DNA of 64,000 nucleotides from Pseudomonadota bacterium. Lineage in GTDB: Bacteria > Pseudomonadota > Alphaproteobacteria > Caulobacterales > Caulobacteraceae. Shown here one piece after another: positions 4,421 through 61,718 of the stretch. The stretch spans positions 1,960 to 65,959 of the forward strand of contig JAZKBZ010000021.1 of NCBI GenBank assembly GCA_040388315.1, in the 5' to 3' direction. Numbering within the stretch: the first letter of the stretch is position 1; every line of letters starts with the position of its first letter. The notes below the pieces were generated by a model. The model saw nothing but the letters and a program-made list of their open reading frames with translations, had not been told where the DNA came from and did no database searches. Both the position numbers and the translations under genes were made by a program.

Positions 4421-5076
4421 TGACCGACACCCTTCCGACCGAGGTCACACCCGTCGAGGTGGCCGACGCCGCCGACTTCGCCCTGGCCACCGGCGCCGAC
4501 GAGAGCGTCATCAACGACCTTCGGCAATACCAGTCATACCTGGAGGACTGGAACCAGCGGATGAACCTGGTGGGGCCCTCCACCCTGGAAATCTTCTGGT
4601 CGCGGCACGCCTGGGACTCAGCCCAGATCCTGCCCCTGGCCCCCGAGGCGCTGACCTGGGCCGACCTCGGAGCGGGCGCAGGTTTGCCGGGCATCGTGCT
4701 GGCGATCCTCAACAAACACCGTCCCGGTTTCCACATGCACCTGGTGGAAAGTATGGCCAAGCGCTGCCGCTTCCTCACCGAGGTGGTGGAGGGTCTCCAC
4801 CTGCCGGCCACCGTTCACAATTCTCGTGCGGAGGACTTGTCCCTGACTGTGGATATCGTCACCGCCCGGGCTTGCGCCCCGATGACCCGGTTGCTTGGGT
4901 ATGCCCAGCCCTACCTGAAGCGCGGCGCGACCGCCTTGTTCCTCAAGGGGCAAGATGTTGCGGTCGAATTGGAAGAGGCTACCAAATCTTGGAAGTTCGA
5001 GGCGGATGTCCTGCCCAGCTTCAGTGATGCGCGTGGGCGCATCGTACGCGTAAGGACGTTGAGCCGTGGCCGCTGA
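4420..5076 (+). CDS. rsmG: 16S rRNA m7G527 methyltransferase RsmG/GidB
   Basis: WNQRMNLVG, RHAWDS, DLGAGAGLPG SAM motif, TARACAP, FLKG; sits between mnmG and parA. Confidence 0.95.
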   Translation: MTDTLPTEVTPVEVADAADFALATGADESVINDLRQYQSYLEDWNQRMNLVGPSTLEIFWSRHAWDSAQILPLAPEALTWADLGAGAGLPGIVLAILNKHRPGFHMHLVESMAKRCRFLTEVVEGLHLPATVHNSRAEDLSLTVDIVTARACAPMTRLLGYAQPYLKRGATALFLKGQDVAVELEEATKSWKFEADVLPSFSDARGRIVRVRTLSRGR

Positions 5077-5884
5077 TCCGAAACCCTTCCGGGCGCTGCG
5101 AATCCTGGTGGTCGCCAACCAGAAGGGCGGCGTGGGCAAGACCACCACCGCCATCAACCTGGGCACGGCGCTGGCCGCGGTCGGCGAGCGGGTGCTGCTG
5201 ATCGACTCCGATCCCCAGGGCAACGCCTCGACCGGCCTGGGCATCCCCCACTCCAAGCGCAAGACCACCCTCTATGACGTGCTGATGGGGGACGCTCCCC
5301 TCACCGCGGCCATCGTGCCGACCGACCTGCCCGGCCTGGACATCGTCCCGGCCCATGCGGATCTCTCCGGCGTCGAGCTGGAGCTGGGCCAGCAGGCCCG
5401 CCGCTCCTTCAAGCTGCGCGACGCCATCGACCCGATCCGCCAGTCGGGCGCCTATACCTATGTGCTGATCGACTGCCCGCCGTCCCTGAACCTGCTGACG
5501 GTCAACGCCATGGCTGCGGCCGACGCGGTGCTGGTGCCCCTGCAGTGCGAGTTCTTCGCCCTGGAGGGCCTGTCCCAGCTGATGCGGACGGTGGAGCTGG
5601 TGCGGGGCAGCCTCAATCCCAACCTGGAGATCCAGGGGGTGGTGCTGACCATGTACGACCGGCGCAACAGCCTGTCGGAACAGGTGGCCAAGGACGTCCG
5701 CGCCCACTTCGGCGGCACGGTCTACGCCACCGTGATCCCGCGTAACGTGCGGGTTTCCGAGGCCCCCAGCTTCGGCAAGCCGGTGCTGGTCTATGATCTG
5801 AAGTGCGCGGGGAGCCAGGCCTATCTGAAGCTCGCCCGCGAAGTCGTGCTGCGCGAGCGCGATCGCCGCGCCAAGGCCGCGTGA
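5066..5884 (+). CDS. parA: Chromosome partitioning ATPase ParA
   Basis: ANQKGGVGKTTT deviant Walker A, DSDPQGNAS, IDCPPSL, PLQCEFFALEG, IPRNVRVSEAPSFG. Confidence 0.97.
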   Translation: MAADPKPFRALRILVVANQKGGVGKTTTAINLGTALAAVGERVLLIDSDPQGNASTGLGIPHSKRKTTLYDVLMGDAPLTAAIVPTDLPGLDIVPAHADLSGVELELGQQARRSFKLRDAIDPIRQSGAYTYVLIDCPPSLNLLTVNAMAAADAVLVPLQCEFFALEGLSQLMRTVELVRGSLNPNLEIQGVVLTMYDRRNSLSEQVAKDVRAHFGGTVYATVIPRNVRVSEAPSFGKPVLVYDLKCAGSQAYLKLAREVVLRERDRRAKAA

Positions 5885-5891
5885 GGAAACA

Positions 5892-6764
5892 ATGATGGTC
5901 GAGAAACGCGGACTGGGCCGGGGGCTGTCGGCCCTGCTGGGGGAGGTCGAGGAGACGCCGGTCACCGCGGGCGCCGCCGGCGGCCTGCGGGACATCCCCA
6001 TCGAGCTGATCCATCGCAACGAGAAGCAGCCCCGCTGGGTCTTCCCCGAGGAGGAGATCGAGGAGCTGGCCGCCTCCATCCGCGAGAAGGGCGTCCTGCA
6101 GCCGATCCTGGTGCGGCCGGCGCCGGAGATGGACGGCCACTTCGAGATCGTGGCCGGGGAACGCCGCTGGCGCGCGAGCCAGAAGGCCGGGCTGCACGCC
6201 CTGCCGGCCCTGGTCCGCGAGCTGAACGATATCCAGATGCTGGAGATCGGGGTCATCGAGAACGTCCAGCGGACGGCGCTCTCCCCCATCGAGGAGGCCA
6301 ACGCCTACCAGCAGCTGGTGGAGGTCCACGGCCGCAGCGCCGCCGAGGTGGCCGACGCGGTGGGCAAGAGCCGCTCCCACGTCGCCAACCTGATCCGCCT
6401 GCTGGCCCTACCCGAGATGGTCCGGCACTACCTGATGAGCGGCCAGCTCACCGCCGGCCACGCCCGCGCCCTGCTGGGGACCCCCGACCCCCAGGCCCTG
6501 GCCGAGATCGTCATCGCCAAGGGCCTGTCGGTGCGCGACACCGAACAGCTGGCCCGCAAGGCGACCGCCGGCGAGAGCCCCGCCAGGGCGGCCCGTCCGG
6601 CGCCGGTCAAGGACACCGACACCCAGGCCCTGGAGGTCGACCTCTCCGAGGCGCTCGGCCTGACCGTCGAGGTGATCGACAGGGGCGGGGTCGGCGAGCT
6701 GCGGGTGAAGTATGCCAGCCTGGAACAGCTCGACGAGGTCTGCCGGCGGTTGACGCGGGCGTAG
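5892..6764 (+). CDS. parB: Chromosome partitioning protein ParB
   Basis: RGLGRGLSALLG, QPILVR, IVAGERRWRA (CTP-binding), ENVQR, GKSRSHVANLIRLL HTH. Confidence 0.97.
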   Translation: MMVEKRGLGRGLSALLGEVEETPVTAGAAGGLRDIPIELIHRNEKQPRWVFPEEEIEELAASIREKGVLQPILVRPAPEMDGHFEIVAGERRWRASQKAGLHALPALVRELNDIQMLEIGVIENVQRTALSPIEEANAYQQLVEVHGRSAAEVADAVGKSRSHVANLIRLLALPEMVRHYLMSGQLTAGHARALLGTPDPQALAEIVIAKGLSVRDTEQLARKATAGESPARAARPAPVKDTDTQALEVDLSEALGLTVEVIDRGGVGELRVKYASLEQLDEVCRRLTRA

Positions 6765-6946
6765 GTCCGAAAACCGCCAGACTGAAATTGGCCCTGTGGC
6801 GCACAGCGGGGCGATCGTCCGTATCCCTGGACGACGGCGAAACGCCATCCTGTGGATGGTTTCGGCGAAATTGGCGTAAGTCGTTCTAAAATATAGCCTA
6901 TTCGACGCACACGACAGGCGGCGCAAAGGGCCGTTTTAGGCTCTTT

Positions 6947-7999
6947 TCATAGACCCAGGCGCTTGGCCCGGCCGGCGATCTGCAGGGCCAGGCGTTCGGC
7001 GATCAGGGCGTCGGGAGAGCCCGCCGTCTTGCACGCCTTGTCGGCGGCGAACACCTCGGGCTGGATGCGGTCCAGTTCCGGCAGGGTCCAGGTGCGGGCC
7101 TGGCGCAGGAACTCCCGCTCGCTCTTCCAGAACACGCCCGAGGCCTTGGCCGCCTCCTGCAGGCCGGCGCCGGACTTGGCCAGGGTCAGGGTGCGGCGCA
7201 TGCGGCCCAGATACATGCCCAGCGCGCGGACGGCGGCGGGGCCCCCCTCCCCTTCGGCGGCGGCGCGGCGCAGGCCGGCCTGGGCCTCAGCGAGGCGCCC
7301 GCCGAAGGCGTCGGCGGCGGCGTCGGACAGGGAGGCCTCGGGCTCGACGCCGAGGAAGTCCTCCAGGTCTTTTGGGGTCGCTGTCACGCCGCTGCCCGGG
7401 CCGAGGAACAGGGCCAGCCGCTCGATCTCCTGGCGGGAGACGCCGCGCTCCTTGGGCATGCGGGCCACGAAGAGCTGCAGGGCCTCGGAGGTCAGCCCCA
7501 CCCCGTCCTTGGAGAGCAGGTCGCGCACCAGCCGGGCGATGTCGCCGGGCTCGTCCTCGTAGCAGGGGATGGTGGCGGCGCCGGGCGCCTTCTCGGCGGC
7601 CTTGCGCAGGGCGGAGTTGCGGTCGAGGGCGCCGGCCTCGATCAGCAGGAAGGCGTCGGGGTTGAGCTCGCCGGCGGCGTGGCGGGTCAGGGCCTCGGCG
7701 GTCATGCGGTCCAGGGCCTGCTTCTCGGTGGCGAACTTCAGCCGCACCAGTCGCCGGCCCCCCATCAGGGACTGGGCCGCCAGCTCGCCCTCCAGCCGCG
7801 CGCCGTCGCCGTCCAGGTCGCCATCGGTGAGCAGGGCCACGTCGAAGGGGTCGTCGGGCCGGTCGCAGACCTTGAGCGCCAGCTGGTTGGCGCGGTCGCG
7901 CACCACGCCCATGTCGCGGCCATAGATCAGGGCGGCGCGAACAGTCTTATCGGGCGCGCCGAGGAAGCGTTCGATGTCCGGCCGCTTGGCGAGGATCAT
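6947..7999 (-). CDS. holA: DNA polymerase III subunit delta
   Basis: Starts MILAKRPDIERF; LIYGRDMG, SLMGGRRLV; conserved position after leuS-lptE. Confidence 0.9.
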   Translation of the reverse strand: MILAKRPDIERFLGAPDKTVRAALIYGRDMGVVRDRANQLALKVCDRPDDPFDVALLTDGDLDGDGARLEGELAAQSLMGGRRLVRLKFATEKQALDRMTAEALTRHAAGELNPDAFLLIEAGALDRNSALRKAAEKAPGAATIPCYEDEPGDIARLVRDLLSKDGVGLTSEALQLFVARMPKERGVSRQEIERLALFLGPGSGVTATPKDLEDFLGVEPEASLSDAAADAFGGRLAEAQAGLRRAAAEGEGGPAAVRALGMYLGRMRRTLTLAKSGAGLQEAAKASGVFWKSEREFLRQARTWTLPELDRIQPEVFAADKACKTAGSPDALIAERLALQIAGRAKRLGL

Positions 8000-43711: not shown

Positions 43712-45001
43712 GTGACCGACCTTGCATCCCCTGACGCCGCCGGCCTGCCGGCCCGCCGCGCCGCGCTCGACCTGCTGAGCGCGGCCCTCGCCCGCCGCAC
43801 CGGCTTCGACGAAGCTGCCGCCACCCCGGCCTTCCGCAACCTGGCGCCCCGCGACCGGGGCTTCGCCCGCGCCCTGGTGCTGGCTACCCTGCGCCACCTG
43901 GGCCCCATCGACCGGGCCCTGGATGCGCGGCTGTCGCGGGACCCGCCCGACGTGGTGCGCAACATCCTGCGCCTGGGCGCGGCCCAGGCCTTCGTCCTGG
44001 GAACCCCGGCCTTCGCGGCCGTCGGAACCAGCGTCGACCTGGTGGCCGCGCTGAAGGAGGGCCGCGCCTTCAAGGGGGTGGTCAACGCCATCCTGCGGGC
44101 GCTCACCCGCGAGCCGCCGGACATGACCGATCCGGAATCCCTGGCCCCGCCCTGGCTGTTCAGCCGCTGGTCGGCCGCCTTCGGCCCCGAGGCCGCCCGC
44201 GCCATGGCCACCCTGATCGCCGCCGAGCCGGCCACCGACCTGTCCCTCAAGGGGCCGGCCACCCCGGAGCTGCTCGCCGCCCTCGAGGCCGAGGAACTGC
44301 CGGGGGGAACGCTGCGCTCGGCCCTGCGGGGCGAGATCTCCACCTGGCCGGGCTTCGCCGAGGGGACCTGGTGGGTGCAGGACGCCAGCGCCGCCATCCC
44401 CGCCCGCCTGCTCGCGGTGAAACCCGGCGAGACCGCGCTCGACCTCTGCGCCGCCCCGGGGGGCAAGACCCTGCAACTGGCCGCCGCCGGCGCCGAGGTC
44501 ACCGCCGTCGACCGCTCCGCCGCCCGCCTGGTGCGGGTGGCCGAGAACCTCGCCCGCCTGGGCCTGACCGCCGAGACGGTGGCCGCCGACGCCGGGGCCT
44601 GGAGCGACGCGCGGGTCTTCGACGCCGTCCTGCTGGACGCCCCCTGCAGCGCCACGGGCACCTATCGTCGCAATCCCGACGTGCTCTGGGCCGCCAAGCC
44701 CGGCGATGTCGCGGCGCTCGCGGGCGTCCAGGCCAAGCTGCTGGACTCCGCGGCCCGCCGTGTGAAGCCCGGCGGCCGCCTGGTCTATTGCGTCTGCTCC
44801 CTGGAGCCGGAGGAGGGCGAGGCCCAGACGGCCGGCTTCCTGGCCCGCAATCCCGACTTCGCCCTGGCCCCCATCTCGCCCGGCGAGGGCGGGGCGCCGG
44901 AGGCCAGCGTCAGGGCCGACGGCACGCTCAGAATCCTGCCCCACCACCGCATCGGGGGCACGGACGGCTTCTTCGTCGCCCGCTACGTCCGCGGCGCCTA
45001 A
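43712..45001 (+). CDS. rsmB: RsmB/Sun-family RNA m5C methyltransferase with NusB-like N-terminus
   Basis: WWVQD, DLCAAPGGKT, LLDAPCSATG, YCVCSL, DGFF. Confidence 0.9.
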   Translation: MTDLASPDAAGLPARRAALDLLSAALARRTGFDEAAATPAFRNLAPRDRGFARALVLATLRHLGPIDRALDARLSRDPPDVVRNILRLGAAQAFVLGTPAFAAVGTSVDLVAALKEGRAFKGVVNAILRALTREPPDMTDPESLAPPWLFSRWSAAFGPEAARAMATLIAAEPATDLSLKGPATPELLAALEAEELPGGTLRSALRGEISTWPGFAEGTWWVQDASAAIPARLLAVKPGETALDLCAAPGGKTLQLAAAGAEVTAVDRSAARLVRVAENLARLGLTAETVAADAGAWSDARVFDAVLLDAPCSATGTYRRNPDVLWAAKPGDVAALAGVQAKLLDSAARRVKPGGRLVYCVCSLEPEEGEAQTAGFLARNPDFALAPISPGEGGAPEASVRADGTLRILPHHRIGGTDGFFVARYVRGA

Positions 45002-49171: not shown

Positions 49172-49402
49172 TCAGGCCGCCCGCGTATCCCACCAGCGCC
49201 ACAGGGCCGCGAGGCCCCAGAAGATCTCGATCAGTCCGAAGGGCCAGGCGCCCTGCAGGAAGGCGTAGGACGAGGCCGCGAAGTTGGCGAAGGCGAAGCC
49301 CAGGGTCCACCAGGGGCTTCGCCTTTCCATGATGTAGCAGAACAGGCTGGCGCAGACGGCGGCGAGGCCGAACAGCGACAGGGCGTCGAAGTGAAATCCC
49401 AT
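49172..49402 (-). CDS. Small membrane protein, unknown function
   Basis: 76 aa, about 3 TM, AFLQGAWPFGLIEIFW; start overlaps the M16 peptidase stop (TGATG). Confidence 0.75.
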   Translation of the reverse strand: MGFHFDALSLFGLAAVCASLFCYIMERRSPWWTLGFAFANFAASSYAFLQGAWPFGLIEIFWGLAALWRWWDTRAA

Positions 49403-52224
49403 CAGGGGGCTTTAGCAGCTTTCCTCAAGCTGGGGCTGTCCAGATCGAGCTCGGCGGCGGGGATCACCTCCAGGTCGGGGCGGCGGGTCTTCAGACCCTC
49501 GGCGAAGCTCTTGGCGTCGCCGGCGACGATGACGCTGACCTTGGCCGGATCAAGCTTGGTCCTGGCGAAGTCCTGCACCTGGGCCCCGGTCACCGCCTCC
49601 ACCTTGCCCGTATAGGCGTTCATTTCGGTGAGCGGCACGCCGTAGAGGGCGAGGTTCCCCAGGATGTCGGCCAGGCCGTCGGTGGTCTCCAGCTGGCGGC
49701 CGAAACCGCCGATCAGCACCGACTTGCGGGCCTTCAGTTCGTCGGCCCCGGGCAGGGTCGAGGTCAGGCCCTTCATCTCGGCCAGGATCAGGTCCAGCAC
49801 CTGGGGCGCGGACTCGTTCTTGGTCTGGGCCGCGGCGCGGAACAGGCCGGTGGTCCGCCGCGGCGTCAGGGACGAACTGGCGCCGTAGGACAGGCCGCGC
49901 TTGATGCGAATCTCCTGGTTCAGCCGGGCCGAGTAGCCGCCCCCCAGCACGGTGTTGGTGACGATGCCCGGATAGTAGGCCGGGTCGTTGCGGGGGATGG
50001 AGGGGCCGGCCACGCTCACCGCCGCCTGGCCGGTTCCGGGCAGGTCGATGGCGATGGCCCGCGGCTTGGCGGCCGGCGTGATGGTCGGCGCGGCGGGGGT
50101 CGCGGTCGCCGGCTTCTTCCAGTCGCCGAAGGTCCGTTCGGCGAGCGCGAAGCCCTGGGCCGGGGTGATCTTGCCGGTGAGGATCAGGATGGCGTTGTCG
50201 GGCCGATAGTAGGCGTCGTGCAGCTTCACCAGGTCGCCGGTGGCGAACCTGGCCACCGAGGCCGGGGTGCCGCCGGCCACATGGCCGAAGGCGGTGCCGG
50301 CGAAGACCGTCGGGCCCGCGGCGAAGGACGCCAGCTGTCCCGGCTCCTGATAGGCCACCGACAGGCCGTCCAGGGTCTGGGCCCGCTGGCGCTCCAGCTC
50401 CTCGCTGGCGAAGGCCGGGTTCTTGGCCACGTCGGCCATGATCGCCATGGCGGCGTCCAGGTTGCCCGGCATGACATTGAGGGTGACGGAGCTGCTCTCC
50501 TGGCCGCCGCCGGACTCCAGGGTCGCCCCCAGGGCCTCGGTCTGCTGGGCGATCTGCGGGGCGCTGCGGGTCTTGGTCCCTTCGGTCAGCATGCCGGCGG
50601 TCATGTTGGCGACGCCCGCCAGGCCGACCGGATCGGCCCAGGCGCCGGTCTTCACGGTGAGATCGGCGGTCACCAGGGGCAACTTCGTGGACTGGGCGAC
50701 GATCACCCGCAGGCCGTTGGCCAGCGTCTTCTCGGCGGGCTTGGGCAGGACGGGGCTGACGGGTTCGGCGAGCGGCGGCGGGGCGACGCGCTGGCCTTCC
50801 GGGGCCAGTTCGCTGACCGGGCCGGCATACTTCACCGAGGCGACGACGGGGGCGGTCTCGGCGGCGGCGACCTCGCCCTTGGGCCGGTCGGAGTCCGGCA
50901 GGTAGCGGATGGTCATCCGCCGGTCGTCGGCCAGGTACTTGGCGGCCACCCGCTGCACGTCGGCGGCGGTCACCGCCTGCAGCTCGGCCAGTTCCTTGTT
51001 GGCCTGGGCGGCGTCGCCCTCGGTGCGCAGGGCGTAGCCCAGGGCGAAGGCGCGGCCGTCGATGGTCTCCCGCTCGCGAAGCTTGCCGGCCACCAGCTCG
51101 TTCTTGGCCTCCGACAGCTCGGCCGGCGTGGGCGGCGCGTCCCGCAGACGCTTCACCTGCGCCAGCAGGGCCTTCTCGCCCTCGTCGATGGTGTGGCCCG
51201 AGGCCATGATCGAGCCCACCATGAACATGCCGGGCTGCTGCGGCAGGTCGGCGCTGGAGAAGACCTGGGCCGAGATCTGCTGGTCGTAGACCAGCGCGTC
51301 ATAGAGCCTGGCCGACTTGCCCGAGGACAGGATGGCGTCCAGCACCTTCAGGGCCGGGGCGTCCGGGTCGGCGGCCTTGGGGCCCAACCAGGTGATGGCC
51401 ACGGCGGGCAGGGGGACGTTGGGACCGTAGCCGGTATAGACCCCGGGCCCGGTGCGTGGCGGCTCGACGGCGGTGACGCGCGCCAGCGGCTGGGCCGGGG
51501 GTTTCAGCGGGCCCATATATTTGTCGACCCAGGCGTTCAGCGCCTTCTCGTCGAAATTGCCCACCACGATCAGGGCGGCGTTGTCGGGCCGGTAATAGGC
51601 GGCGTGGAAGGCGCGCACGTCGTCGATGGTGGCGGCGTCCAGCTCCTCGATGGAGCCGATCCCCGGCCGCTTGTAGGGGTGGGTCGTGTAGCTGGCCTTG
51701 GGCAGGTACAGGGCGAACAGCCGGCCATAGGGGCTGGCCAGGACCCGCTGGCGCAGCTCCTCCTTCACCACGTCGCGCTCGGACTTGAAGTTGGCCTCGT
51801 CCACCACGAGGGAGCCCAGCCGCTCGCTCTCCACCCAGATCAGCCGCTCCAGGTGGTTGGCCGGCACCACCTCGTAATAGTTGGTGAAGTCGTCATAGGT
51901 CGACGCGTTGTTGATCCCGCCCACGTCCTCGGTGAAGCGGTCGATGCTCTCGGCCGGGAAGTCCTTGGTGGCCTTGAACATCATGTGTTCGAACAGGTGG
52001 GCGAAGCCCGAGCGGCCAAGCGGGTCGTCCTTCGACCCCACGCCGTACCAGACCTGCACCGTCACGTTCGGCGTGGCGCGGTCCAGCGAGGTGTACAGCT
52101 TCAGCCCATTGGCCAGGGTCCGTTCCTTGTAGGCGATCGGCGGAACCGTGTCGGCGGCGAAGGCGGGCGCGGTGGCGGCGAGCCCCAGGCTCAGGGCGGC
52201 GGCGCAGGCGAAGGTGCGGAACAT
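49402..52224 (-). CDS. Exported M16 (pitrilysin/PqqL-like) zinc peptidase
   Basis: Signal peptide, GFAHLFEHMMF (HxxEH), NASTYDDFTNY, duplicated M16 halves. Confidence 0.93.
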   Translation of the reverse strand: MFRTFACAAALSLGLAATAPAFAADTVPPIAYKERTLANGLKLYTSLDRATPNVTVQVWYGVGSKDDPLGRSGFAHLFEHMMFKATKDFPAESIDRFTEDVGGINNASTYDDFTNYYEVVPANHLERLIWVESERLGSLVVDEANFKSERDVVKEELRQRVLASPYGRLFALYLPKASYTTHPYKRPGIGSIEELDAATIDDVRAFHAAYYRPDNAALIVVGNFDEKALNAWVDKYMGPLKPPAQPLARVTAVEPPRTGPGVYTGYGPNVPLPAVAITWLGPKAADPDAPALKVLDAILSSGKSARLYDALVYDQQISAQVFSSADLPQQPGMFMVGSIMASGHTIDEGEKALLAQVKRLRDAPPTPAELSEAKNELVAGKLRERETIDGRAFALGYALRTEGDAAQANKELAELQAVTAADVQRVAAKYLADDRRMTIRYLPDSDRPKGEVAAAETAPVVASVKYAGPVSELAPEGQRVAPPPLAEPVSPVLPKPAEKTLANGLRVIVAQSTKLPLVTADLTVKTGAWADPVGLAGVANMTAGMLTEGTKTRSAPQIAQQTEALGATLESGGGQESSSVTLNVMPGNLDAAMAIMADVAKNPAFASEELERQRAQTLDGLSVAYQEPGQLASFAAGPTVFAGTAFGHVAGGTPASVARFATGDLVKLHDAYYRPDNAILILTGKITPAQGFALAERTFGDWKKPATATPAAPTITPAAKPRAIAIDLPGTGQAAVSVAGPSIPRNDPAYYPGIVTNTVLGGGYSARLNQEIRIKRGLSYGASSSLTPRRTTGLFRAAAQTKNESAPQVLDLILAEMKGLTSTLPGADELKARKSVLIGGFGRQLETTDGLADILGNLALYGVPLTEMNAYTGKVEAVTGAQVQDFARTKLDPAKVSVIVAGDAKSFAEGLKTRRPDLEVIPAAELDLDSPSLRKAAKAP

Positions 52225-52320
52225 GGACGCGTCTCGAAGGGGCTGGGTCACCGCGAACCTAGCACCCGCGACGCGCGAGGGAAGCTTACGGGATTGTCAT
52301 GGAAAGCCGTTCCCCAACCT

Positions 52321-53894: not shown

Positions 53895-54848
53895 ATGTTC
53901 GACTGGAACGATCTCAAGGCCTTTCTCGCCGTCGCCCGCGGCGGCTCGACCCTGGCCGCGGCCAGGACCCTGAAGATCAACCAGACCACGGTGGCCCGGC
54001 GCATCGAGGCCCTGGAGACGGCCCTGGGGTTGAAACTGTTCGAGCGCGGCCAGGCCGGCAGCCGGCTCACCGAGGCCGGCGAGGACCTGCTGGCCGAGGC
54101 CGAGCGGATGGAGGTTTCCGCCAAGGCCTTCGCCAACCGGGCCGGCGCCCACCAGCGCGGCCTGGCCGGGACGCTGAAGGTCACCTCCACCGAGATCCTC
54201 GCCAACCTGGCCATCACCCCGGCCCTGGTGGGATTCCGGGAGCTCTATCCCGACGTGAAGGTCGATCTGATCCTCAGCGACCTGCCCCTCGACCTGGCGG
54301 CCGGCGAGGCCGACGTCGCCATCCGGGCGGGCCAGGCCCTGACGGTGTCGGACCTGGTGGCCCGCAAGCTGGCCGATTTCGAGTTCGCCCTCTATTGCAG
54401 CCGCGACTACGCCGCCCGCCGCGGCGTGCCCGCCACCCTGGAGGACCTGCGCCAGCACGACCTGATCGGCGGGGAGGGGGGCCGCCTGGCGCTGCCGGGA
54501 ACCCGCTGGATGTTCGAGCAGGTGCCCGGCGCGGTCCCGGCCCATTCCTCGAACTCGATGACCAATCTGAACCTGGCGGTGAAGGCGGGCCTGGGCATCG
54601 CGCCCATCGGTTGCCTGCTGGCCGACCTCGACCCCGACCTGATCCAGATCTGGCCGCCGATCCCCGACTTGAGCGCCAGCGCCTGGGTGGTGACCCGGGC
54701 CGAACTGAAGGACACCCCGCGGGTGCGGGCCTTCATCGACTTCATCGTCCCCCACGTCGCCACCCTGCGCCGCACCCTGGAAGCCCAGGGCGCGGCCATG
54801 AAGGCCGAAAAGGCCGCCGCGGTGGTGGCCTTCCCGAAGACGGGTTGA
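53895..54848 (+). CDS. LysR family transcriptional regulator
   Basis: MFDWNDLKAFLAVARGGSTLAAA..NQTTVARRIEALE..LFER HTH; divergent from the GST. Alternative start at 53880. Confidence 0.95.
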   Translation: MFDWNDLKAFLAVARGGSTLAAARTLKINQTTVARRIEALETALGLKLFERGQAGSRLTEAGEDLLAEAERMEVSAKAFANRAGAHQRGLAGTLKVTSTEILANLAITPALVGFRELYPDVKVDLILSDLPLDLAAGEADVAIRAGQALTVSDLVARKLADFEFALYCSRDYAARRGVPATLEDLRQHDLIGGEGGRLALPGTRWMFEQVPGAVPAHSSNSMTNLNLAVKAGLGIAPIGCLLADLDPDLIQIWPPIPDLSASAWVVTRAELKDTPRVRAFIDFIVPHVATLRRTLEAQGAAMKAEKAAAVVAFPKTG

Positions 54849-54896
54849 ATAGGTTTCCGCCCCCTGGCGAAGCGTCTGGGGGAGGGGAACCCAGTC

Positions 54897-55880
54897 CTAC
54901 TCCGCTAGCTTCACCAGCATCTTGCCGGCGTTGCGGCCTTCCATCAGGCCGATCAGGGCGGCCGGCGCGTTGGCGATCCCGTCCAGGACGGTCTCCTGGT
55001 ACTTGACGCGGCCGTCCTTCAGCCAGCCGGCCATGTCGCGCTGGAAGTCGGCGTACATGTGCATGAAGTCCGTGCCCACGAAGCCCCGCAGCATCACCCG
55101 CGAATAGATGATGTTGGACAGGTTCGAGACGTTGGAGTGGCCGGAATTGTAGCCGGAGATGAAGCCGCAGACCGGGATGCGGCCGAGCGTGTTCATGCGG
55201 CGCAGGGCCGCCTCCAGGTGATCGCCCCCGACATTGTCGAAATAGACGTCGATCCCCTTGGGGGTGGCGGCCTCCAGCTGGCCGCGGATCGGGGCGTCCT
55301 TGTAGTTGATGACGGCGTCGAGGCCGACCTCGTCCTTCAGCCAGGCCGCCTTCTCCGCGCTGCCGGTGGAGCCCACCACGTAGCAGTCCTTGATCTTGGC
55401 GATCTGGGCGGCCACCGAGCCCACGGCCCCGCCGGCGGTGGAAACGAAGACCTGTTCACCGTCCTTCAGGGCGCCGATGTGCAGCAGGCCGCCATAGGCG
55501 GTGAAGCCGGTCATGCCGAGGGCGTGCATGTGGACGGTCAGGGAGAGGTCCGGATCGGGGGTGAGCTTGGTGAGGCCCTTGCCGTCGCTGGTGAAGTATT
55601 CGCGGAAGCCCAGGCGGTTGGAGACCAGGTCGCCGACGGCGAAGTCCCCGTTCTTCGACTGGACGACGCGGCCCAGGGCCCCGCCCATCATGGCCTCGCC
55701 CAGGGCCTGGCCGGCGGTCAGGCGCGGCCGCATGGCCGGGTCCACCGACATATAGAGGTTCTGCACCAGCACCTCGCCGTCGGCGGCGTCGGGAACCTGG
55801 GTTTCGACGACCGCGAACTGGTCGACCGTGGGCATGCCCTTGGGGCGCTCGATGAGGTGGATTTCGCGGCTGACGGGCAT
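54897..55880 (-). CDS. NADP-dependent oxidoreductase (CurA/YncB, MDR superfamily)
   Basis: YMSVDPAMR, LGMTGFTAYGGL, AGGAVGS, GIDVYFDNVGG, GRNAGKMLV. Confidence 0.93.
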   Translation of the reverse strand: MPVSREIHLIERPKGMPTVDQFAVVETQVPDAADGEVLVQNLYMSVDPAMRPRLTAGQALGEAMMGGALGRVVQSKNGDFAVGDLVSNRLGFREYFTSDGKGLTKLTPDPDLSLTVHMHALGMTGFTAYGGLLHIGALKDGEQVFVSTAGGAVGSVAAQIAKIKDCYVVGSTGSAEKAAWLKDEVGLDAVINYKDAPIRGQLEAATPKGIDVYFDNVGGDHLEAALRRMNTLGRIPVCGFISGYNSGHSNVSNLSNIIYSRVMLRGFVGTDFMHMYADFQRDMAGWLKDGRVKYQETVLDGIANAPAALIGLMEGRNAGKMLVKLAE

Positions 55881-55975
55881 GTCGCCCTCCCATTCTGGAA
55901 TTTGAAAAAGCTAAAAATTCACCGATCACGCAATGTGATGGATCGGTGGGTCCAGTCTGTCACAGGCCCCTCCCG

Positions 55976-56956
55976 TCAGGGAAGGGCGTCGCCCCAGTCG
56001 AGGCGCCGGGCCCAGGCGTAGGCGGCCTTGTCGCGGCGGGGGACGTCGGCCAGCTCGGCGGTCCCCGACGGCGTGCAGAGCTTGAAGGTGATGGCGGGCT
56101 TGGCGGTGCGCGGCGGGGCCAGGATGCGGGCGGTGGGCGTCCGGGCGCTCACCGAGGCCCGGGCGGCGACCAGGTAGATAAATTTTTCGTCTTCGAAGGG
56201 CAGGTCGGCGCCCTTGGCCAGGCGGTGGTCGCGGGACCGCGGCAGGCGCTGGACGAAATGGCACCAGTCCGGCGGGGTCAGCGGGCAGGCCAGGGCGTGG
56301 GGGCAGGGGGCCAGCAGGGTCGCGCCGGCCGCGATCAAGGTCTCGCGGGCGGCCAGGATGCGGCGATAGCCGTCCGGGGTTCCAGGCTCGACCAGGGCCA
56401 GCATCCCGTCGGTCGCGCCCCACAGGTCGGAGACGGTCTCCGCCTGACGCGCCGCCGGGATTTCGGCCAGGGCGTAGCTGGCGATCACCAGGTCGGCCTG
56501 GGGCCAGTCGGCAGCCGGCGCGGTGAGGTCGCCGCGTAAGAATTTCGCGTCCTTGAGCGCCCCGTGGCCCTCGGAGGCCAGCTTGGCGGCCATGTCCAGG
56601 AAGGGGCGGCTGGAATCCAGCAGGGTCACCGACCCCAGGCCCGGCCAGGTCTCCAGGGCCGCCCAGCTCGCCCCGCCGGGGCCCGCGCCGGCGTCGAGCA
56701 GGCGGGCCGGCGCGAAGTCCGGCGCCATCCGCCGGGCCTCGGCCAGCACATAGGCGCAGGCGGCGTAGGTGGCCGGCAGGCGCGAGAGCACATAGGCGAT
56801 CGCGTCGGCCTCGTCGGTGACCACCACCTTGGAGGTCTCGCCGCCGCGATAGCCGCTCGAAATCCTGGCCGAGCGCTCGGCCAGGCCCTTGCGGGAGACG
56901 CCGTCGAGCAGGCGGTCGGCGGCGAGGCGGAGGGCGGCGGGCAGGTCGGGGCTCAT
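55976..56956 (-). CDS. Rsm22/METTL17-family SAM-dependent methyltransferase-like protein
   Basis: AYVLSRLPATYAA, LLDAGAGPG, LVEPGTPDGY, APCPHALACP..DWCHF, EDEKFIY. Confidence 0.85.
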   Translation of the reverse strand: MSPDLPAALRLAADRLLDGVSRKGLAERSARISSGYRGGETSKVVVTDEADAIAYVLSRLPATYAACAYVLAEARRMAPDFAPARLLDAGAGPGGASWAALETWPGLGSVTLLDSSRPFLDMAAKLASEGHGALKDAKFLRGDLTAPAADWPQADLVIASYALAEIPAARQAETVSDLWGATDGMLALVEPGTPDGYRRILAARETLIAAGATLLAPCPHALACPLTPPDWCHFVQRLPRSRDHRLAKGADLPFEDEKFIYLVAARASVSARTPTARILAPPRTAKPAITFKLCTPSGTAELADVPRRDKAAYAWARRLDWGDALP

Positions 56957-56965
56957 GGGAAGGCT

Positions 56966-57556
56966 TTAGCCCGCCGGGGCCGCCCGCGCCAAACTCTCCC
57001 GCTTCAGGGCGCCCAGGGCCATCAGCACGTCGCGGCGCAGGGCCAGGCGGGCGAGGGTCCCAGGGACCGCATAGGGGCTGGCGGCGCGGTTCTCATAGAC
57101 CACGCGGGTGGCCCGGCCGCCGCGCAGGGGGATCAGCCGCCACTCGCCCTCCAGGACCTTCAGGTCGCCGTCGGTGCGCTTGAAGCGCAGGCGCCTCGGC
57201 GGATCGAAATCCGAGCGCACCACGCTGCGGAACCGGGGCATCAGGCCGGGGCGGGCGATCTGTTCGCGTATGTCCCAGCGTCCGGCCGGATCGCGCTCCA
57301 GGACCCGGCAGCTCTTGAGGCTGGGCGCCATGCGAGGGGCGAGATCGCAGTCGGTGAGCACCGCCCAGACCACCTCCGGCGCGGCGGCGATCTCCACCCC
57401 GGCGCGGATCAGGCCCGAGGCGCCGTCCGGATCGGGACGGACCTCCACATAGGTCTGGCCCCGGGTCAGCTGCGACAGGACCTGGCCCGGCGGCTCCCAG
57501 GCCCAGACCGGAGAGGCCTGGACCAGGAGGGCGGCGAGGGCGAGGGCCAGGCGCAT
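56966..57556 (-). CDS. Exported SRPBCC (START-like) family protein
   Basis: Signal peptide; VEIAAAPEVVWAVLTD, GDLKVLEGEWRL. Confidence 0.8.
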   Translation of the reverse strand: MRLALALAALLVQASPVWAWEPPGQVLSQLTRGQTYVEVRPDPDGASGLIRAGVEIAAAPEVVWAVLTDCDLAPRMAPSLKSCRVLERDPAGRWDIREQIARPGLMPRFRSVVRSDFDPPRRLRFKRTDGDLKVLEGEWRLIPLRGGRATRVVYENRAASPYAVPGTLARLALRRDVLMALGALKRESLARAAPAG

Positions 57557-57571
57557 GCCGCGGGCCCGCCC

Positions 57572-59512
57572 TCAGCTTCCGACGCGGTTCTTCACTAGGT
57601 CGTCCACCACCGACGGGTCGGCCAGGGTCGAGGTGTCGCCCAGGTTGGAGAGGTCGTTTTCGGCGATCTTGCGCAGGATGCGGCGCATGATCTTGCCCGA
57701 GCGGGTCTTGGGCAGGCCCGGCGCGAACTGCACCACGTCGGGCGCCGCGAAGGGCCCGATCTCCCGGCGGACCCAGCCCTTGAGCTCGGCCTGCAGGATG
57801 TCGGTGGGGACCACCTCGGCCTTCAGGGTCACGAAGCAGTAGACGCCCTGGCCCTTGATGTCGTGCGGGAAGCCGACCACGGCGGCCTCGGCGACGTTCT
57901 CGTTGCTCACCAGGGCGCTCTCGATCTCGGCGGTGCCAAGGCGGTGGCCGGAGACGTTGATCACGTCGTCCACCCGGCCGGTGATCCAGTAATAGCCGTC
58001 CTCGTCCCGGCGGCAGCCGTCGCCGGTGAAATATTTACCGGCATAGGTGGAGAAATAGGTGTCGAAGAAGCGCTGGTGGTCGCCATAGACGGTGCGCATC
58101 TGGCCGGGCCAGGAGTCGGTGATCACCAGGTTGCCGCTGACAGCCCCGTGCAGGGTCTGGCCCTCGGCGTCCACCAGCTCGAACTTGATCCCCGGCAGGG
58201 GCTTGGCGCAGGAGCCGGGCTTCAGCGGCGTGGCGCCGGGCAGGGGGGAGGCCAGGCAGGCCCCGGTCTCGGTCTGCCAGTAGGTGTCGACGATGGGGCA
58301 GCGGCCGTCCCCCACCACCCGGTGGTACCAGAGCCAGGCCTCGGGATTGATCGGCTCGCCCACCGTGCCCAGCAGGCGCAGGGACTTGCGCGAGGTCTTC
58401 TTCACCGGGGCGTCGCCGTCGCGCATCAGGGCGCGGATGGCGGTGGGGGCGGTGTAGAAGGTGTTGACCTTGTGCTTGTCGATCACCTCCCAGAACCGGG
58501 AATTGGTCGGATAGTTGGGCACGCCCTCGAACATCACTGAGGTGGCGGCGTTGGCCAGGGGTCCGTAGACCACATAGGAGTGGCCGGTGACCCAGCCCAC
58601 GTCGGCGGTGCACCAGAAGACCTCGCCGGGCTGGTAGTCGAAGACCAGTTCGTGGGTGTGCGCCGCCCACACCAGATAGCCGCCGGTGGTGTGCAGCACC
58701 CCCTTGGGCTTCCCGGTCGACCCCGACGTGTAGAGGATGAACAGCGGGTCCTCGGCGTTCATCGGCTCGGGCTCGCAGGTGTCGGCGACGCTCTGCTTGA
58801 GGTCCGAATAGAAGGCGTCGCGGCCGGCTTTCATCGGCACGTCGGCCCGGGTACGGCGCACCACGACGACGTCGGTGACGCCCGGGCACTGCTCCAGGGC
58901 CTCGTCGACATTGCGCTTCAGGGGCACGATCTTGCCGCCCCGCAGGCCCTCGTCGGCGGTGATGACGATCCTGGAGTCGCAGTCCTGGATGCGGCCGGCG
59001 ATGCTGTCGGGGGAGAAGCCGCCGAAGATCACCGAATGGACCGCCCCGATGCGGGCGCAGGCCAGCATGGCCACGGCGGCCTGGGGGATCATCGGCAGAT
59101 AGATGGTGACCCGGTCACCCTTCTGGACGCCCTTGGCCTTCAGCACATTGGCCATGCGGCAGGTTTCGGCGTGCAGCTGGCGGTAGGTCAGGTTGTCCCA
59201 GGGCTCGCCCTCGTCGCTCTCCCAGATGATCGCCACCTGGTCGCCGCGGGCCTCCAGGTGCCGGTCCAGGCAGTTGACCGAGACGTTCAGCACGCCGTCG
59301 GCGTACCAGCGGATATGGAAGGGATGCTTGTGGAAGGAGGTGTCCTTCACCTCCGTGAAGGGCTTGATCCAGTCGAGCCGGCCGGCGACGTCGCGCCAGT
59401 AGCCGTCGGGGTCGGTCTCCACGCGTTGAACCGCCGCCTCATAGGCCTGCGCGTTCATCTTGGTCCGCTTGGCCCAGGCCGCGGGAACCGGGAAAACTTC
59501 GCCCTCGCTCAC
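57572..59512 (-). CDS. acs: Acetyl-CoA synthetase
   Basis: [45 protein letters not shown]. Confidence 0.98.
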
Positions 59513-59588
59513 CGTTCACACTCCCATCAAATCTTGGCTGCGAGTTATGCGGAGGGCGCCACGTCGGCGCAACAGGCTCGGCTAGAAA

Positions 59589-60272
59589 TCAGCGTTTCGG
59601 AATGAGCTGCTCGAAGCCGGCGATCAGGCAGTTGAGGCCGAAGGCGAACTGGCCGTCGACATCGCCCCCCACCTCGAAGGCGCTCATCACCTGGGCGAAG
59701 TGGGGATAGGCGCCGGTGGCCAGCATGGCCTTGGCCAGGTCGTCATTGCCGTCGTGGCCGGTCGCCTGGCGGGCGCGCAGCTCGGCCTCCCCCACCGCCC
59801 AGCTCACCACATAGGAAAATCCCGTGCTCATGGCGTAGGCGGCGTCCTTGGGCGACAGGCCCGCCCGCATCAGGATCGCCAGGATCATCTCGGCCTGGGC
59901 CATGATGTTGGGGCCGACGAAGAAGCCGTGCGGCAGCAGCTTGGCCACGTCGCGCCGGGCCAGCAGGTGGCGGCGCAGCTGCTGGGCCATGCGGTAGATG
60001 TCCTCGCGCCAGTCCCGCCCGTCCAGGGTGAAGGTCAGGTCGGCCATCAGGTGGTCGTAGAGCGCCACCTGCAGGGCGTCCTTGCTGGGGAAGTGCCAGT
60101 AGAGGGCCGGGGCCTGGACGTTCAGCTCGGCGGCCACCGCCCGCATGGTCAGGCGCTCGATCCCCTCGCGCTCCAGGACCCGCGCCGCGGCCTCCACCAC
60201 CAGGTCGGGACTGAGCTGCGGACGGGCCTTGGACGGGACGCGGGAGACCATGCCCGTCATTCTGTCATTCAT
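59589..60272 (-). CDS. TetR family regulator with TetR_C domain
   Basis: LTMRAVAAELNVQAPALYWHFPSK HTH; C-terminal FAFGLNCLIAG. Confidence 0.93.
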   Translation of the reverse strand: MNDRMTGMVSRVPSKARPQLSPDLVVEAAARVLEREGIERLTMRAVAAELNVQAPALYWHFPSKDALQVALYDHLMADLTFTLDGRDWREDIYRMAQQLRRHLLARRDVAKLLPHGFFVGPNIMAQAEMILAILMRAGLSPKDAAYAMSTGFSYVVSWAVGEAELRARQATGHDGNDDLAKAMLATGAYPHFAQVMSAFEVGGDVDGQFAFGLNCLIAGFEQLIPKR

Positions 60273-60327
60273 TTAACGTTGTAAATCTCCTTCGCGGGGG
60301 TAGGCTCAGCTTAACGACGTTAAATGA
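60269..60327. promoter_or_regulatory. Two inverted copies of a probable TetR operator
   Basis: TCATTTAACGTTGTAAA (60269-60285) and TTAACGACGTTAAATGA (60311-60327) share ACGTTAAATGA in opposite orientations. Confidence 0.7.
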
Positions 60328-60344
60328 GCCTGGGAGGGCGCGCC

Positions 60345-61718
60345 ATGACCGCCGTCGAGATGTCGCCGAAGCTGGTGGGGTCCGATCCGCCGCCGCGCCG
60401 CATGCCGCTGTTTGGCCTGGACAAGGCCCTGCGCAAGCACCCCTTCCCCACCATCCCGCCGCAGGCCTACCGGGCGCCGGTGCTCAAGGTCCCCACCGTG
60501 GGCGGCCAGCGCTTCTACGTGGTCAGCGACCCGGCCGGGGTGAAGCGAATTCTGCTGGATCATGTCGCCAACTATCCGAAGACCGAGCGCGAGCGGCGGT
60601 TCTTCTCGGCCATGTTCGGCGATGGCCTGCTCTCCACCGACGGCGAGGTCTGGCGCGCCCATCGACGGACCATGGCGCCGTCCTTCTCGCCCCCCAGCGT
60701 GGCCTCCTACGCGCCGACCATGGCCGCCTGCGCCGAGGCCTTCCGCGGACGTTGGGATCAGGCGCCGGAGGGCGCCGAGATCGACGTGGCCGAGGCCATG
60801 ACCGACCTGACCCTGCAGATCATCGCCAGGACCATGTTCTCCACCGATAGCGCCGATGTCGCAGGCGTGGTGCGCGGGGCGATGAGCCGGGCCATGGACC
60901 AGCTGGACTTCAATATCCTCGACCTGCTGCCGGTGGTGGGCGAGGCGCGGTTCAAGGCGCGCGAACGGCGGATCGAGACCATCTTCGCCGAGTTGGACGC
61001 CGCCATCGCCCGGATGATCACACAGCGCCAGGCCGATCCGCAGGGTGGGCCGCAGGACCTGCTGGCCCGGCTGATCGCCGCCCGCGACGGGGAGACCGGC
61101 CAGGCCATGAGCCCCAAGGAGATCCGCGACCAGGTGGTGACCATCTTCCTGGCCGGCCACGAGACCACCGCGGCCACCATGTGCTGGCTCTGGTACCTGC
61201 TCTCCCAGCACCCGCAGGTGGAGGCCCGCCTGCACGCCGAGCTCGACCAGGTCCTGGACGGCCGCACGCCCGGCCACGAGGACCTGGCCGACCTGCCCTA
61301 CGCCAGGATGGTGGTGGACGAGGCGCTGCGGATCTATCCGGCCGCCCCGGGCCTCTCCACCCGGGTGGCCCTGGAGGCCGACGAGATCTGCGGGGTGAAG
61401 ATCCCCAAGGGCGGGATGATCGCCGTCGCCCCCTGGATTCAGCACCGGCACGAGAGCCTGTGGGCGGACCCCGGCCGGTTCGATCCCGAGCGCTTCGCCC
61501 CGGGCGTCGAGCGGCCGCGCTTCGCCTACATGCCCTTCGGCGGCGGGCCCAAGGTCTGTATCGGGGCGGCGCTGGCCACCACCGAGACCCTGCTGATCCT
61601 GGCCACCCTGGCCCAGCGCTACAGCCTGGCCCTGAAGCCCGGCCACCAGGTGGAGATCCTCCAGAAGATCACCATGCGCCCGCGCGGCGGGCTGCCGATG
61701 ATCCTGCGCCGGCGTTAG
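60345..61718 (+). CDS. Cytochrome P450
   Basis: AGHETT I-helix, EALR (ExxR), FDPERF, FGGGPKVCIG heme Cys. Alternative start at 60324. Confidence 0.96.
   Translation: MTAVEMSPKLVGSDPPPRRMPLFGLDKALRKHPFPTIPPQAYRAPVLKVPTVGGQRFYVVSDPAGVKRILLDHVANYPKTERERRFFSAMFGDGLLSTDGEVWRAHRRTMAPSFSPPSVASYAPTMAACAEAFRGRWDQAPEGAEIDVAEAMTDLTLQIIARTMFSTDSADVAGVVRGAMSRAMDQLDFNILDLLPVVGEARFKARERRIETIFAELDAAIARMITQRQADPQGGPQDLLARLIAARDGETGQAMSPKEIRDQVVTIFLAGHETTAATMCWLWYLLSQHPQVEARLHAELDQVLDGRTPGHEDLADLPYARMVVDEALRIYPAAPGLSTRVALEADEICGVKIPKGGMIAVAPWIQHRHESLWADPGRFDPERFAPGVERPRFAYMPFGGGPKVCIGAALATTETLLILATLAQRYSLALKPGHQVEILQKITMRPRGGLPMILRRR

Follow-up and report, generated by a model that had tools for sequence, protein, structure and literature searches.

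A bacterial Rsm22/METTL17-family protein with a four-cysteine putative [4Fe-4S] site, and linkage of its gene to the isc cluster in other Alphaproteobacteria

Proteins of the METTL17/Rsm22 family are a key link between iron-sulfur (Fe-S) supply and mitochondrial translation, with bearing on Friedreich's ataxia and ISC disorders, and both their activity and their target are disputed (PMC11046306, PMC11785013, PMC12375894). In human METTL17, residues C333, C339, C347 and C404 coordinate a [4Fe-4S]2+ cluster, and Ast et al. (2024, PMC11046306) described 3.7 Fe per polypeptide, which fell to 0.2 in a Cys-to-Ser mutant. The same cluster has been described for the human and yeast proteins (Harper et al. 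2022, PMC9892005; a yeast study from 2025, PMC12375894), and the text of Ast et al. on their Fig. 4A already puts in print that a bacterial ortholog retains the four cysteines. Here we analyzed a bacterial member of the family, encoded by the gene rsm22 in a stretch of 64,000 nucleotides (nt), hereafter the window, from a Phenylobacterium-like genome of the family Caulobacteraceae (GenBank assembly GCA_040388315.1, contig JAZKBZ010000021.1). An earlier sequence-only reading of the window had proposed that this gene encodes an alphaproteobacterial counterpart of the mitochondrial Fe-S checkpoint for ribosome assembly, retaining a four-cysteine motif. Since Ast et al. describe the four cysteines in a bacterial ortholog, the central sequence point of that proposal was already known; the new point is the linkage of rsm22 to the isc operon in other Alphaproteobacteria. 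Taken as a whole, our results make it fairly probable that the product is an S-adenosylmethionine (SAM)-binding Rsm22/METTL17 protein that carries an Fe-S cluster and acts on RNA of the translation apparatus.

Membership in the family was clear from both sequence and fold. The product matched the Pfam family Rsm22 (PF09243) at an E-value of 5.1e-74 with 249.6 bits, where the cut-off is 23, residues 50-326 covering positions 2-275 of the 275 in the profile, and the generic methyltransferase domains Methyltransf_25/12/11 were secondary matches within residues 85-175. NCBIfam has no specific model for this protein, and the only matches there, to BioC and Tam, were far under their cut-offs. When the single sequence was compared with PDB sequences by phmmer, the best match was human METTL17 (8csp_7, E 1.4e-25, residues 49-326 to 152-438, 26% identity), followed by Trypanosoma brucei mt-SAF1 (E 8.8e-13) and yeast Rsm22 (E 0.044); with a profile of 107 bacterial sequences the corresponding values were 3.6e-49, 2e-33 and 3.8e-22. 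An AlphaFold2 model made from a 107-sequence alignment had a mean predicted local distance difference test score (pLDDT) of 96.9 and a predicted template modelling score (pTM) of 0.94, and its order of strands and helices fits the core of a class I (Rossmann-like) SAM methyltransferase. Foldseek comparison with the PDB placed METTL17, Rsm22 or mt-SAF1 chains at all ranks from 1 to 11 (E 8.9e-23 to 5e-13, TMq 0.66-0.81), the human and yeast chains at TMq 0.77-0.81 (8csp_7 at 0.81) and the T. brucei chains at 0.66-0.68. The best chain from outside the family, 1wy7_C, reached a TMq of 0.41 over the Rossmann core only, and generic methyltransferases aligned to the core at about 0.4. As the Pfam profile, the ligand register, the SAM motif and the whole-chain structural likeness agree, the product is a genuine bacterial member of the Rsm22/METTL17 family over its whole length and shows every feature of the family that can be checked from sequence or fold. 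The full-profile Pfam match and the whole-chain Foldseek matches thereby bear out the homology that the sequence-only reading had proposed. The gene is at the same time an ordinary, correctly nameable member of an annotated family, as the product is one of the bacterial proteins entered as 'small ribosomal subunit Rsm22 family protein' or 'ribosomal protein RSM22 (predicted rRNA methylase)', names that were given automatically from the Pfam or COG family and not from experiments.

The protein contains five cysteines (residues 67, 218, 224, 232 and 294), and a regular expression applied to the translation found the pattern C-x5-C-x7-C-x61-C beginning at residue 218, with the first bases of the four codons at 56305, 56287, 56263 and 56077. 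Comparison with the table of open reading frames (ORFs) and the translation showed that the reading frame, the glycine-rich motif LLDAGAGPG, the cysteine spacing and the four codon positions had all been reported exactly by the sequence-only reading. In the phmmer alignment as well as in the profile alignment, C218, C224, C232 and C294 stand one-to-one opposite the four human ligands, where the human residue numbers were counted along the printed alignment and the ligand identities are those of PMC11046306. A misalignment of the cysteines with the METTL17 ligands, which the sequence-only reading had named as the outcome that would speak against it, was thus not seen; all four are in register. 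The spacing C-x5-C-x7-C with a distant fourth cysteine differs from the CxxxCxxC of radical SAM enzymes, and the radical SAM motif was not found in the protein, a point that Ast et al. (2024, PMC11046306) also make for METTL17.

The likeness to the mitochondrial proteins goes beyond the cysteines. With human METTL17 (PDB 8csp chain 7), a [4Fe-4S] assembly factor of the mitoribosomal small subunit, the window protein shares the glycine-rich SAM motif, the four-cysteine register, the tyrosine of the LYR motif and the C-terminal WGD motif. It differs in being only 326 amino acids (aa) long, in having no mitochondrial presequence and in carrying a 48-residue N-terminus of its own, which is conserved among the bacterial proteins and in which Y36 is invariant. 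The human L-Y-R reads A-Y-A in the window protein; the tyrosine was found in 98 of 128 alphaproteobacterial sequences, the others having F, H or A, and the LYR motif is described as incompletely conserved among eukaryotes too (PMC12375894). Yeast Rsm22 (PDB 8om2, 8d8j-l) has the same fold, and the profile alignment takes in its APCPH..CP segment, the basic stretch after the third cysteine and the C-terminal domain with the fourth cysteine, although the yeast protein is 628 aa long with extended insertions and extensions, and its pairwise similarity is weak. The yeast SAM motif is described as degenerate (PMC11046306), in contrast to the intact motif of the bacterial protein. T. brucei mt-SAF1/Mettl17 (PDB 6sg9, 6sgb, 9hny) also aligns with the window protein over the methyltransferase core and the cysteine loop, and both SAM and Fe4S4 were modelled in 9hny (PMC11785013); this protein, however, has 1041 aa and sits within a huge assemblosome as a heterodimer with Mettl15 (PMC11785013).

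Conservation was counted in three sets of sequences. An exhaustive search for Rsm22 among cluster representatives gave 4630 matches at E<=0.001 and 1207 at E<=1e-30, and the representative counts given here refer to the best 150. The locus set holds 128 of 134 candidate alphaproteobacterial rows, those dropped having a match of fewer than 250 query residues or no start codon, and alignment A1, in which Y36 is invariant, holds 107 bacterial relatives. At the four ligand positions cysteine was found in 150, 150, 149 and 147 of the 150 representatives, the three misses at the last position being gaps, and all four cysteines were present in 128 of 128 locus sequences. With such conservation the four-cysteine motif is no chance feature. 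In the SAM motif, D88, G92 and G94 were invariant in A1 and each was kept in 148 of the 150 representatives, and the locus set kept D88, G90 and G92 throughout (128/128). The third conserved region is the basic loop that follows the third cysteine. R240 and K248 were invariant in A1, where R237, H244, H233 and F234 were at least 90% conserved, and in the locus set R240 was found in 128 and K248 in 127 of the 128 sequences. In the human alignment this R-x2-R-S-R-x-H-R-x2-K loop falls on a gap and on residues that differ, and yeast Rsm22 has a stretch rich in Lys and Arg. In T. brucei, basic residues of the loop after the third cysteine are described as rRNA contacts (Alam et al. 2021, PMC8171064), and because of the T. 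brucei and yeast descriptions in that paper the bacterial loop is a candidate RNA-contacting element. Judged from these alignments, the SAM site, the metal site and the probable RNA-contact loop are under strong selection in the bacterial relatives examined.

Genomic context gave independent support for an Fe-S link of Rsm22. We widened the flanks of rsm22 in 32 other genomes from the class Alphaproteobacteria and scanned the neighbors against Pfam and by tblastn. In 11 of these, rsm22 is immediately preceded by a co-directional gene for an isc-type [2Fe-2S] ferredoxin (fdx) (L139, L143, L144, L145, L150, L151, L155, L159, L161, L162 and L166); the 11 genomes come from 9 of the 22 other families in which rsm22 occurs. 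A DNA alignment revealed codon-like conservation in the spacer of about 200 nt that separates fdx from rsm22; eight of the 11 linked loci have an ORF of 64-68 aa there, and 8 out of 8 match IscX/YfhJ (PF04384, E about 1e-28 to 1e-30). These genes are closely packed, with gaps of -1 to 31 nt between fdx and iscX and of -22 to +25 nt between iscX and rsm22 (96 nt in one locus), and in the three linked loci that have no iscX the gap from fdx to rsm22 is 9, 43 or 117 nt. Further upstream, six linked loci hold varying sets of the genes for IscS, IscU, IscA, HscB and HscA (Table 1). Evidently, rsm22 follows directly on the isc gene cluster in these lineages, in the order hscA-fdx-iscX-rsm22 where the upstream genes are seen. 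The linked sequences are scattered on the tree (9 changes among 10 rows, in a long-branched part), which would fit an old arrangement that was lost repeatedly. A linkage of Rsm22/METTL17 to isc was not found in print in the open-access literature searched. The idea that isc-linked Rsm22 proteins are closer to human METTL17 was rejected, as two of them scored 87.4 and 73.2 bits compared with 93.7 for the window protein.

Sulfur trafficking and tRNA modification provide a second link, through the adjacency of mnmA to rsm22 in several small-genome Alphaproteobacteria. The gene for MnmA, the tRNA 2-thiouridylase, lies directly downstream of rsm22 in three genomes (L029/L138, L158 and L159). In L136 it lies two genes downstream on the opposite strand and is preceded by a ferredoxin gene. 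Besides the 11 isc-linked genomes, one genome has an fdx-mnmA pair 2.2 kb off, downstream of rsm22 and on the opposite strand. The other recurrent neighbors with a tie to translation, a DTW-domain gene in one genome and rimP-nusA in two, are rare as well.

These observations can be joined in a tentative mechanism. The domain order of the product is a class I SAM methyltransferase core, a cysteine loop of the pattern APCPHxxxCP...C inserted in that core and a small C-terminal beta (OB-like) domain. Ligand conservation and the isc-operon context in other genomes suggest that the protein binds a cluster, and a [4Fe-4S] cluster would tie the C-terminal domain, through C294, to the methyltransferase core, through C218, C224 and C232. 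Such a cluster would be needed for stability and for presenting the basic loop (R237, R240, H244 and K248) to RNA, as in METTL17. As the SAM site does not vary among the bacterial relatives examined, bacterial Rsm22 probably still binds SAM, and it may methylate its substrate or only act as a chaperone. By analogy with mitochondria the substrate would be an RNA of the translation apparatus, most likely that of the 30S subunit during maturation, where head and body join (h31/h34 region). HscB was not found in the source genome, which is 94% complete, and SufB/D is present; because HscB was not found, the cluster would be supplied here by SUF, and not by ISC as for human METTL17. A broader proposal, built on the isc-linked gene order in a range of small-genome Alphaproteobacteria, is that the coupling of Rsm22 to Fe-S supply predates mitochondria, that the checkpoint came from the bacterial ancestor and was not a eukaryotic invention, and that under shortage or oxidation of clusters the SUF-fed, free-living Phenylobacterium protein would delay the maturation of 30S subunits or a single RNA methylation; we consider this chain of events rather doubtful.

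Escherichia coli RumA (RlmD), a 23S rRNA m5U methyltransferase, is alike in principle, being SAM-dependent with a non-catalytic, oxidant-sensitive [4Fe-4S] cluster. It belongs to a different family with a different domain order, and no RumA-type Pfam domain was among the five families matched by the window protein at E<=0.01. RumA is named in PMC11452305.

Several observations weigh against the reading of Rsm22 as an Fe-S protein that acts on translation RNA, and above all against a general role in the ribosome. Binding to the 30S subunit and a checkpoint role are extrapolated from mitochondria and would hold only by that analogy. No functional study of a bacterial Rsm22 was found in the open-access literature searched, which agrees with the sequence-only reading in its description of the bacterial homologs as largely uncharacterised. 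The methyltransferase activity of eukaryotic members is described as disputed (PMC11785013, PMC12375894), and yeast Rsm22 is described to have methylated tRNA, not rRNA, in vitro (PMC8171064). RsmD, an RsmB-like gene and RsmH are all present in the source genome, and therefore no missing 16S enzyme points to Rsm22. At the window locus isc linkage is absent, the upstream genes being those for an SRPBCC protein and acetate--CoA ligase (acs). None of the 101 loci of Phenylobacterium and Hyphomicrobiales-like genomes examined contained IscX, and isc linkage was seen in only 2 of the 57 metagenome loci whose upstream flank reached 700 nt or more, so the linkage is restricted to certain lineages and is not general. 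The distribution of the gene is also narrow. Across the class, 34 of the 301 genomes sampled (30 of 248 genera) had rsm22 at E<=1e-10, the unpublished genome G151 being counted, and many of the holders are 1.0-2.3 Mb in size. Above the Pfam cut-off it was found in 0 of 16 genomes from the five other families of the order, and a set of 14 named control genomes with Caulobacter vibrioides, E. coli and Bacillus subtilis in it gave no match at E<=1e-10. The Rsm22 family is thus absent from most relatives, which excludes a universal 30S role. As the gene is not general in Alphaproteobacteria or Caulobacterales, and as it nests among Hyphomicrobiales sequences, a core ribosome-assembly checkpoint is unlikely.

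Within the genus, rsm22 was present in 23 of 24 other genomes, and the source genome has a single copy. Of 25 genera in the same family, from which 81 genomes were drawn evenly, matches above the Pfam cut-off came only from the window's own genus (5/5) and from one other (3/5); another three genera had weak matches below it and 20 had none. All 25 of the 401 genomes that held rsm22 in a phylum-wide draw belong to the window's own class, and clusters in the atlas show the family also in Actinomycetota. With this patchy distribution rsm22 is an accessory and not a core part of ribosome biogenesis in the order. Close cluster representatives come from Phenylobacterium (64-94% identity), and the nearest named relatives outside that genus from Bradyrhizobium, Rhodopseudomonas palustris, Nitrobacter, Afipia, Methylocystis and Devosia (45-53% identity). 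In an unrooted FastTree tree of 128 rows, in which many forks are unresolved, Phenylobacterium formed one clade (33 rows, support 98) within a 99-row clade (support 97) that it shares with Hyphomicrobiales-like sequences; this topology would fit an old transfer and vertical descent with many losses equally well. The lack of a strong match in the control genomes may explain why bacterial Rsm22 has been neglected. The compact bacterial orthologs, of about 325 aa and with SAM and cluster sites that are invariant in the relatives examined, could settle the ancestral activity, and they occur in tractable free-living organisms such as Rhodopseudomonas palustris and Bradyrhizobium. The wider interest of the locus lies in the isc-operon linkage in other Alphaproteobacteria and in the use of bacterial orthologs for resolving METTL17-type function.

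Other explanations for the conserved sites have to be weighed against this. The four cysteines could hold a structural zinc, in the manner of a zinc knuckle, and leave the protein insensitive to Fe-S supply; Cys4 sites can bind either metal, and the T. brucei cryo-electron microscopy (cryo-EM) model at first had Zn2+ at this site, the loop being described as zinc-finger-like in PMC8171064. That density was, however, later re-assigned to Fe4S4 (PMC11785013), and the human and yeast proteins are described as binding [4Fe-4S] by inductively coupled plasma mass spectrometry, ultraviolet-visible spectroscopy, electron paramagnetic resonance, cryo-EM and 55Fe labelling (PMC11046306, PMC9892005, PMC12375894). 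Replacement of a labile cluster by Zn in aerobic preparations is described as a known artefact (PMC11046306), and in other Alphaproteobacteria rsm22 comes after hscA-fdx-iscX, as would fit an Fe-S client; all this leaves a zinc protein quite improbable. An Fe-S-containing tRNA methyltransferase, not a 30S factor, is a nearer alternative that we still judge unlikely. The OB-like domain and the basic loop would then bind tRNA and the SAM site, with its invariant motif, would be catalytic. It draws on the report that yeast Rsm22 methylated mitochondrial tRNAs in vitro in a SAM-dependent manner, with tRNA proposed as the substrate (PMC8171064), and on the tRNA-modification genes that adjoin rsm22 elsewhere, namely mnmA (L029, L158, L159 and L136), a DTW-domain gene directly downstream in L149 and a divergent TruA gene in L160. 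Nevertheless, the yeast signal was described as low, about 816 disintegrations per minute (dpm) compared with 47-145 dpm in the controls (PMC8171064), all solved structures of the family are bound to small-subunit rRNA, and tRNA-gene neighbors occur in few of the 32 genomes, none of them adjoining rsm22 in the window.

The local gene order allows yet another interpretation, by which the protein is a metabolic methyltransferase, acting on a small molecule or a protein and tied to acetate or acyl-CoA metabolism, with a METTL17 likeness of fold only. Indeed, 18 of 23 other loci of the genus have a co-directional acs upstream of rsm22 (of the remaining five, one is convergent, two have no acs within the 1.35 kb examined and two are ended by the contig), and 11 named Phenylobacterium-like loci likewise place acs beside rsm22. 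In L140 and L153 the genes that adjoin rsm22 encode other acyl-CoA synthetases of the AMP-binding type. Outside Phenylobacterium, however, acs was beside rsm22 in none of the other named loci (L056-L134), so the linkage is confined to this genus and the order says little on function, and the intervening SRPBCC gene was found in only 6 of the 23 loci. Furthermore, the conserved basic loop and the OB-like domain fit binding of nucleic acid, and the similarity to METTL17 spans the whole chain and not just the Rossmann core. A metabolic role is accordingly the least credible of the alternatives, and a very remote one. The preferred reading thus remains an Fe-S, SAM-binding protein acting on RNA of the translation apparatus, for which the features of the locus are collected in Table 1.

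Table 1. Positions of rsm22, its motifs and its neighbors in the window, and gene order at isc-linked loci of other genomes (rows labelled L)
Feature	Position	Strand	Basis or remark
rsm22 gene	55976..56956	-	single ORF, ATG start, 326 aa, stop codon included; Rsm22/METTL17-family class I SAM methyltransferase-like protein
SAM-binding glycine-rich motif LLDAGAGPG, residues 86-94	56675..56701	-	translation
Cysteine loop APCPHALACPLTPPDWC with C218, C224, C232, first three putative [4Fe-4S] ligands	56261..56305	-	aligned to human METTL17 C333, C339, C347
Basic loop HFVQRLPRSRDHRLAK immediately following the third Cys, residues 233-248; may contact RNA	56213..56260	-	conservation
C294 codon, distal fourth putative ligand, C-terminal beta domain	56075..56077	-	aligned to human METTL17 C404
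Y313 codon, opposite Tyr of human 'LYR' motif (here A-Y-A)	56018..56020	-	alignment
SRPBCC (Polyketide_cyc) gene	56966..57556	-	Pfam PF03364 E 1.1e-20; 9 nt upstream of rsm22
acs, acetate--CoA ligase	57572..59512	-	NCBIfam NF001208 1064 bits, TIGR02188 998 bits, both above cut-off; 15 nt upstream of SRPBCC gene
TetR-family regulator gene	59589..60272	-	Pfam TetR_N E 4.6e-15, TetR_C_1 E 5.5e-24; 76 nt upstream of acs
NADPH-dependent medium-chain oxidoreductase (CurA/LTB4-dehydrogenase-like)	54897..55880	-	Pfam ADH_N_2, ADH_zinc_N; 95 nt downstream of rsm22
L151 example	fdx 5312-5641, iscX 5658-5861, rsm22 5863-6864	+	isc-linked locus
L151 upstream of fdx			IscU-IscA-HscB-HscA
L162 upstream of fdx			IscS-IscU-HscB-HscA
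L150 upstream of fdx			same order as L151; ORF at HscB position without Pfam match
L161 upstream of fdx			IscA-HscB-HscA
L143 upstream of fdx			IscA-HscB-HscA-2-oxoglutarate (2OG) oxygenase
L159 upstream of fdx			IscU, ORF without Pfam match, HscA, 2OG oxygenase

On the minus strand of the window the order of genes is TetR-family regulator, acs, SRPBCC gene, rsm22 and CurA-like oxidoreductase, the last scoring 335.9 bits on NCBIfam NF058644, under its cut-off of 440. The sequence-only reading had placed rsm22 in an apparent operon behind acs and a gene for an exported SRPBCC protein. The gaps of 15 and 9 nt and the identities of both genes were correct, and because the gaps are this short co-transcription of rsm22 with acs and the SRPBCC gene is plausible and even probable; the acs-(SRPBCC)-rsm22 order, on the other hand, proved specific to Phenylobacterium. 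The TetR-family regulator may control this string of genes. The N-terminus of the SRPBCC protein, MRLALALAALLVQASPVWA-WE, resembles a signal peptide when the translation is read by eye only, and from this appearance the protein looks like a putatively exported one. A consensus scan for promoters and terminators over 54700-60400 gave 0 sites of either kind, such a scan being uninformative in a GC-rich alphaproteobacterium. Public RNA-labelled runs (shares 0.05-0.08) gave no contig that spans the acs, SRPBCC and rsm22 junctions, only short contigs mostly from conserved acs parts of relatives, and the longest sequencing-run piece over the locus (1783 nt, 112 differences) came from a run of unknown kind.

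Elsewhere, no universal conserved neighbor of rsm22 was found: across 80 metagenome loci no family occurred in more than 8, the commonest being ABC ATPase, NUDIX, MarR, AlkZ-like and MFS, and the metagenome neighbor clusters 1-3 are opposite-strand shadow ORFs of rsm22 itself. In Hyphomicrobiales-like loci recurrent downstream ORFs resemble LemA and M48/HtpX, as read from two sequences. The acyl-CoA synthetase genes beside rsm22 in L140 (7729-9321, minus strand) and L153 (4748-5980, minus strand) are not orthologous to acs (29% identity in L032/L140); in two unrelated genomes they may echo the acs-rsm22 pairing, or this may be coincidence. In L139 a tRNA-Met gene and a gene for a group II intron reverse transcriptase/maturase (4959-5035 and 6162-7463) occupy the place of hscA upstream of fdx-iscX-rsm22. 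The genes rimP-nusA, for a 30S maturation factor and a transcription factor, are near rsm22 in two genomes; in L142 and L147, which are of one family, rsm22 ends a string of NDUFA12-like, MlaD and DUF2155 genes that is divergent from rimP-nusA.

Rsm22 as a substitute for a missing h31 methyltransferase was also considered and rejected, as RsmD and the RsmB-like gene are present. The latter, resembling a 16S rRNA m5C methyltransferase gene, lies in the window itself at 43787-44986 on the plus strand (G000:C21:45746-46945), about 11 kb from rsm22, and scored 238.8 bits on TIGR00563, under the equivalog cut-off of 269. RsmH (Methyltransf_5) was found in two halves, at G000:C139:6628-7095 (profile positions 151-306) and G000:C102:28186-28602 (profile positions 2-150), most likely as the result of an assembly break rather than a split gene. 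Finally, a 949-aa ORF at 49402-52251 on the minus strand has a signal-like N-terminus and the motif HLFEH (HxxEH), and by its translation resembles a two-domain M16 (pitrilysin/insulinase-type) zinc peptidase.

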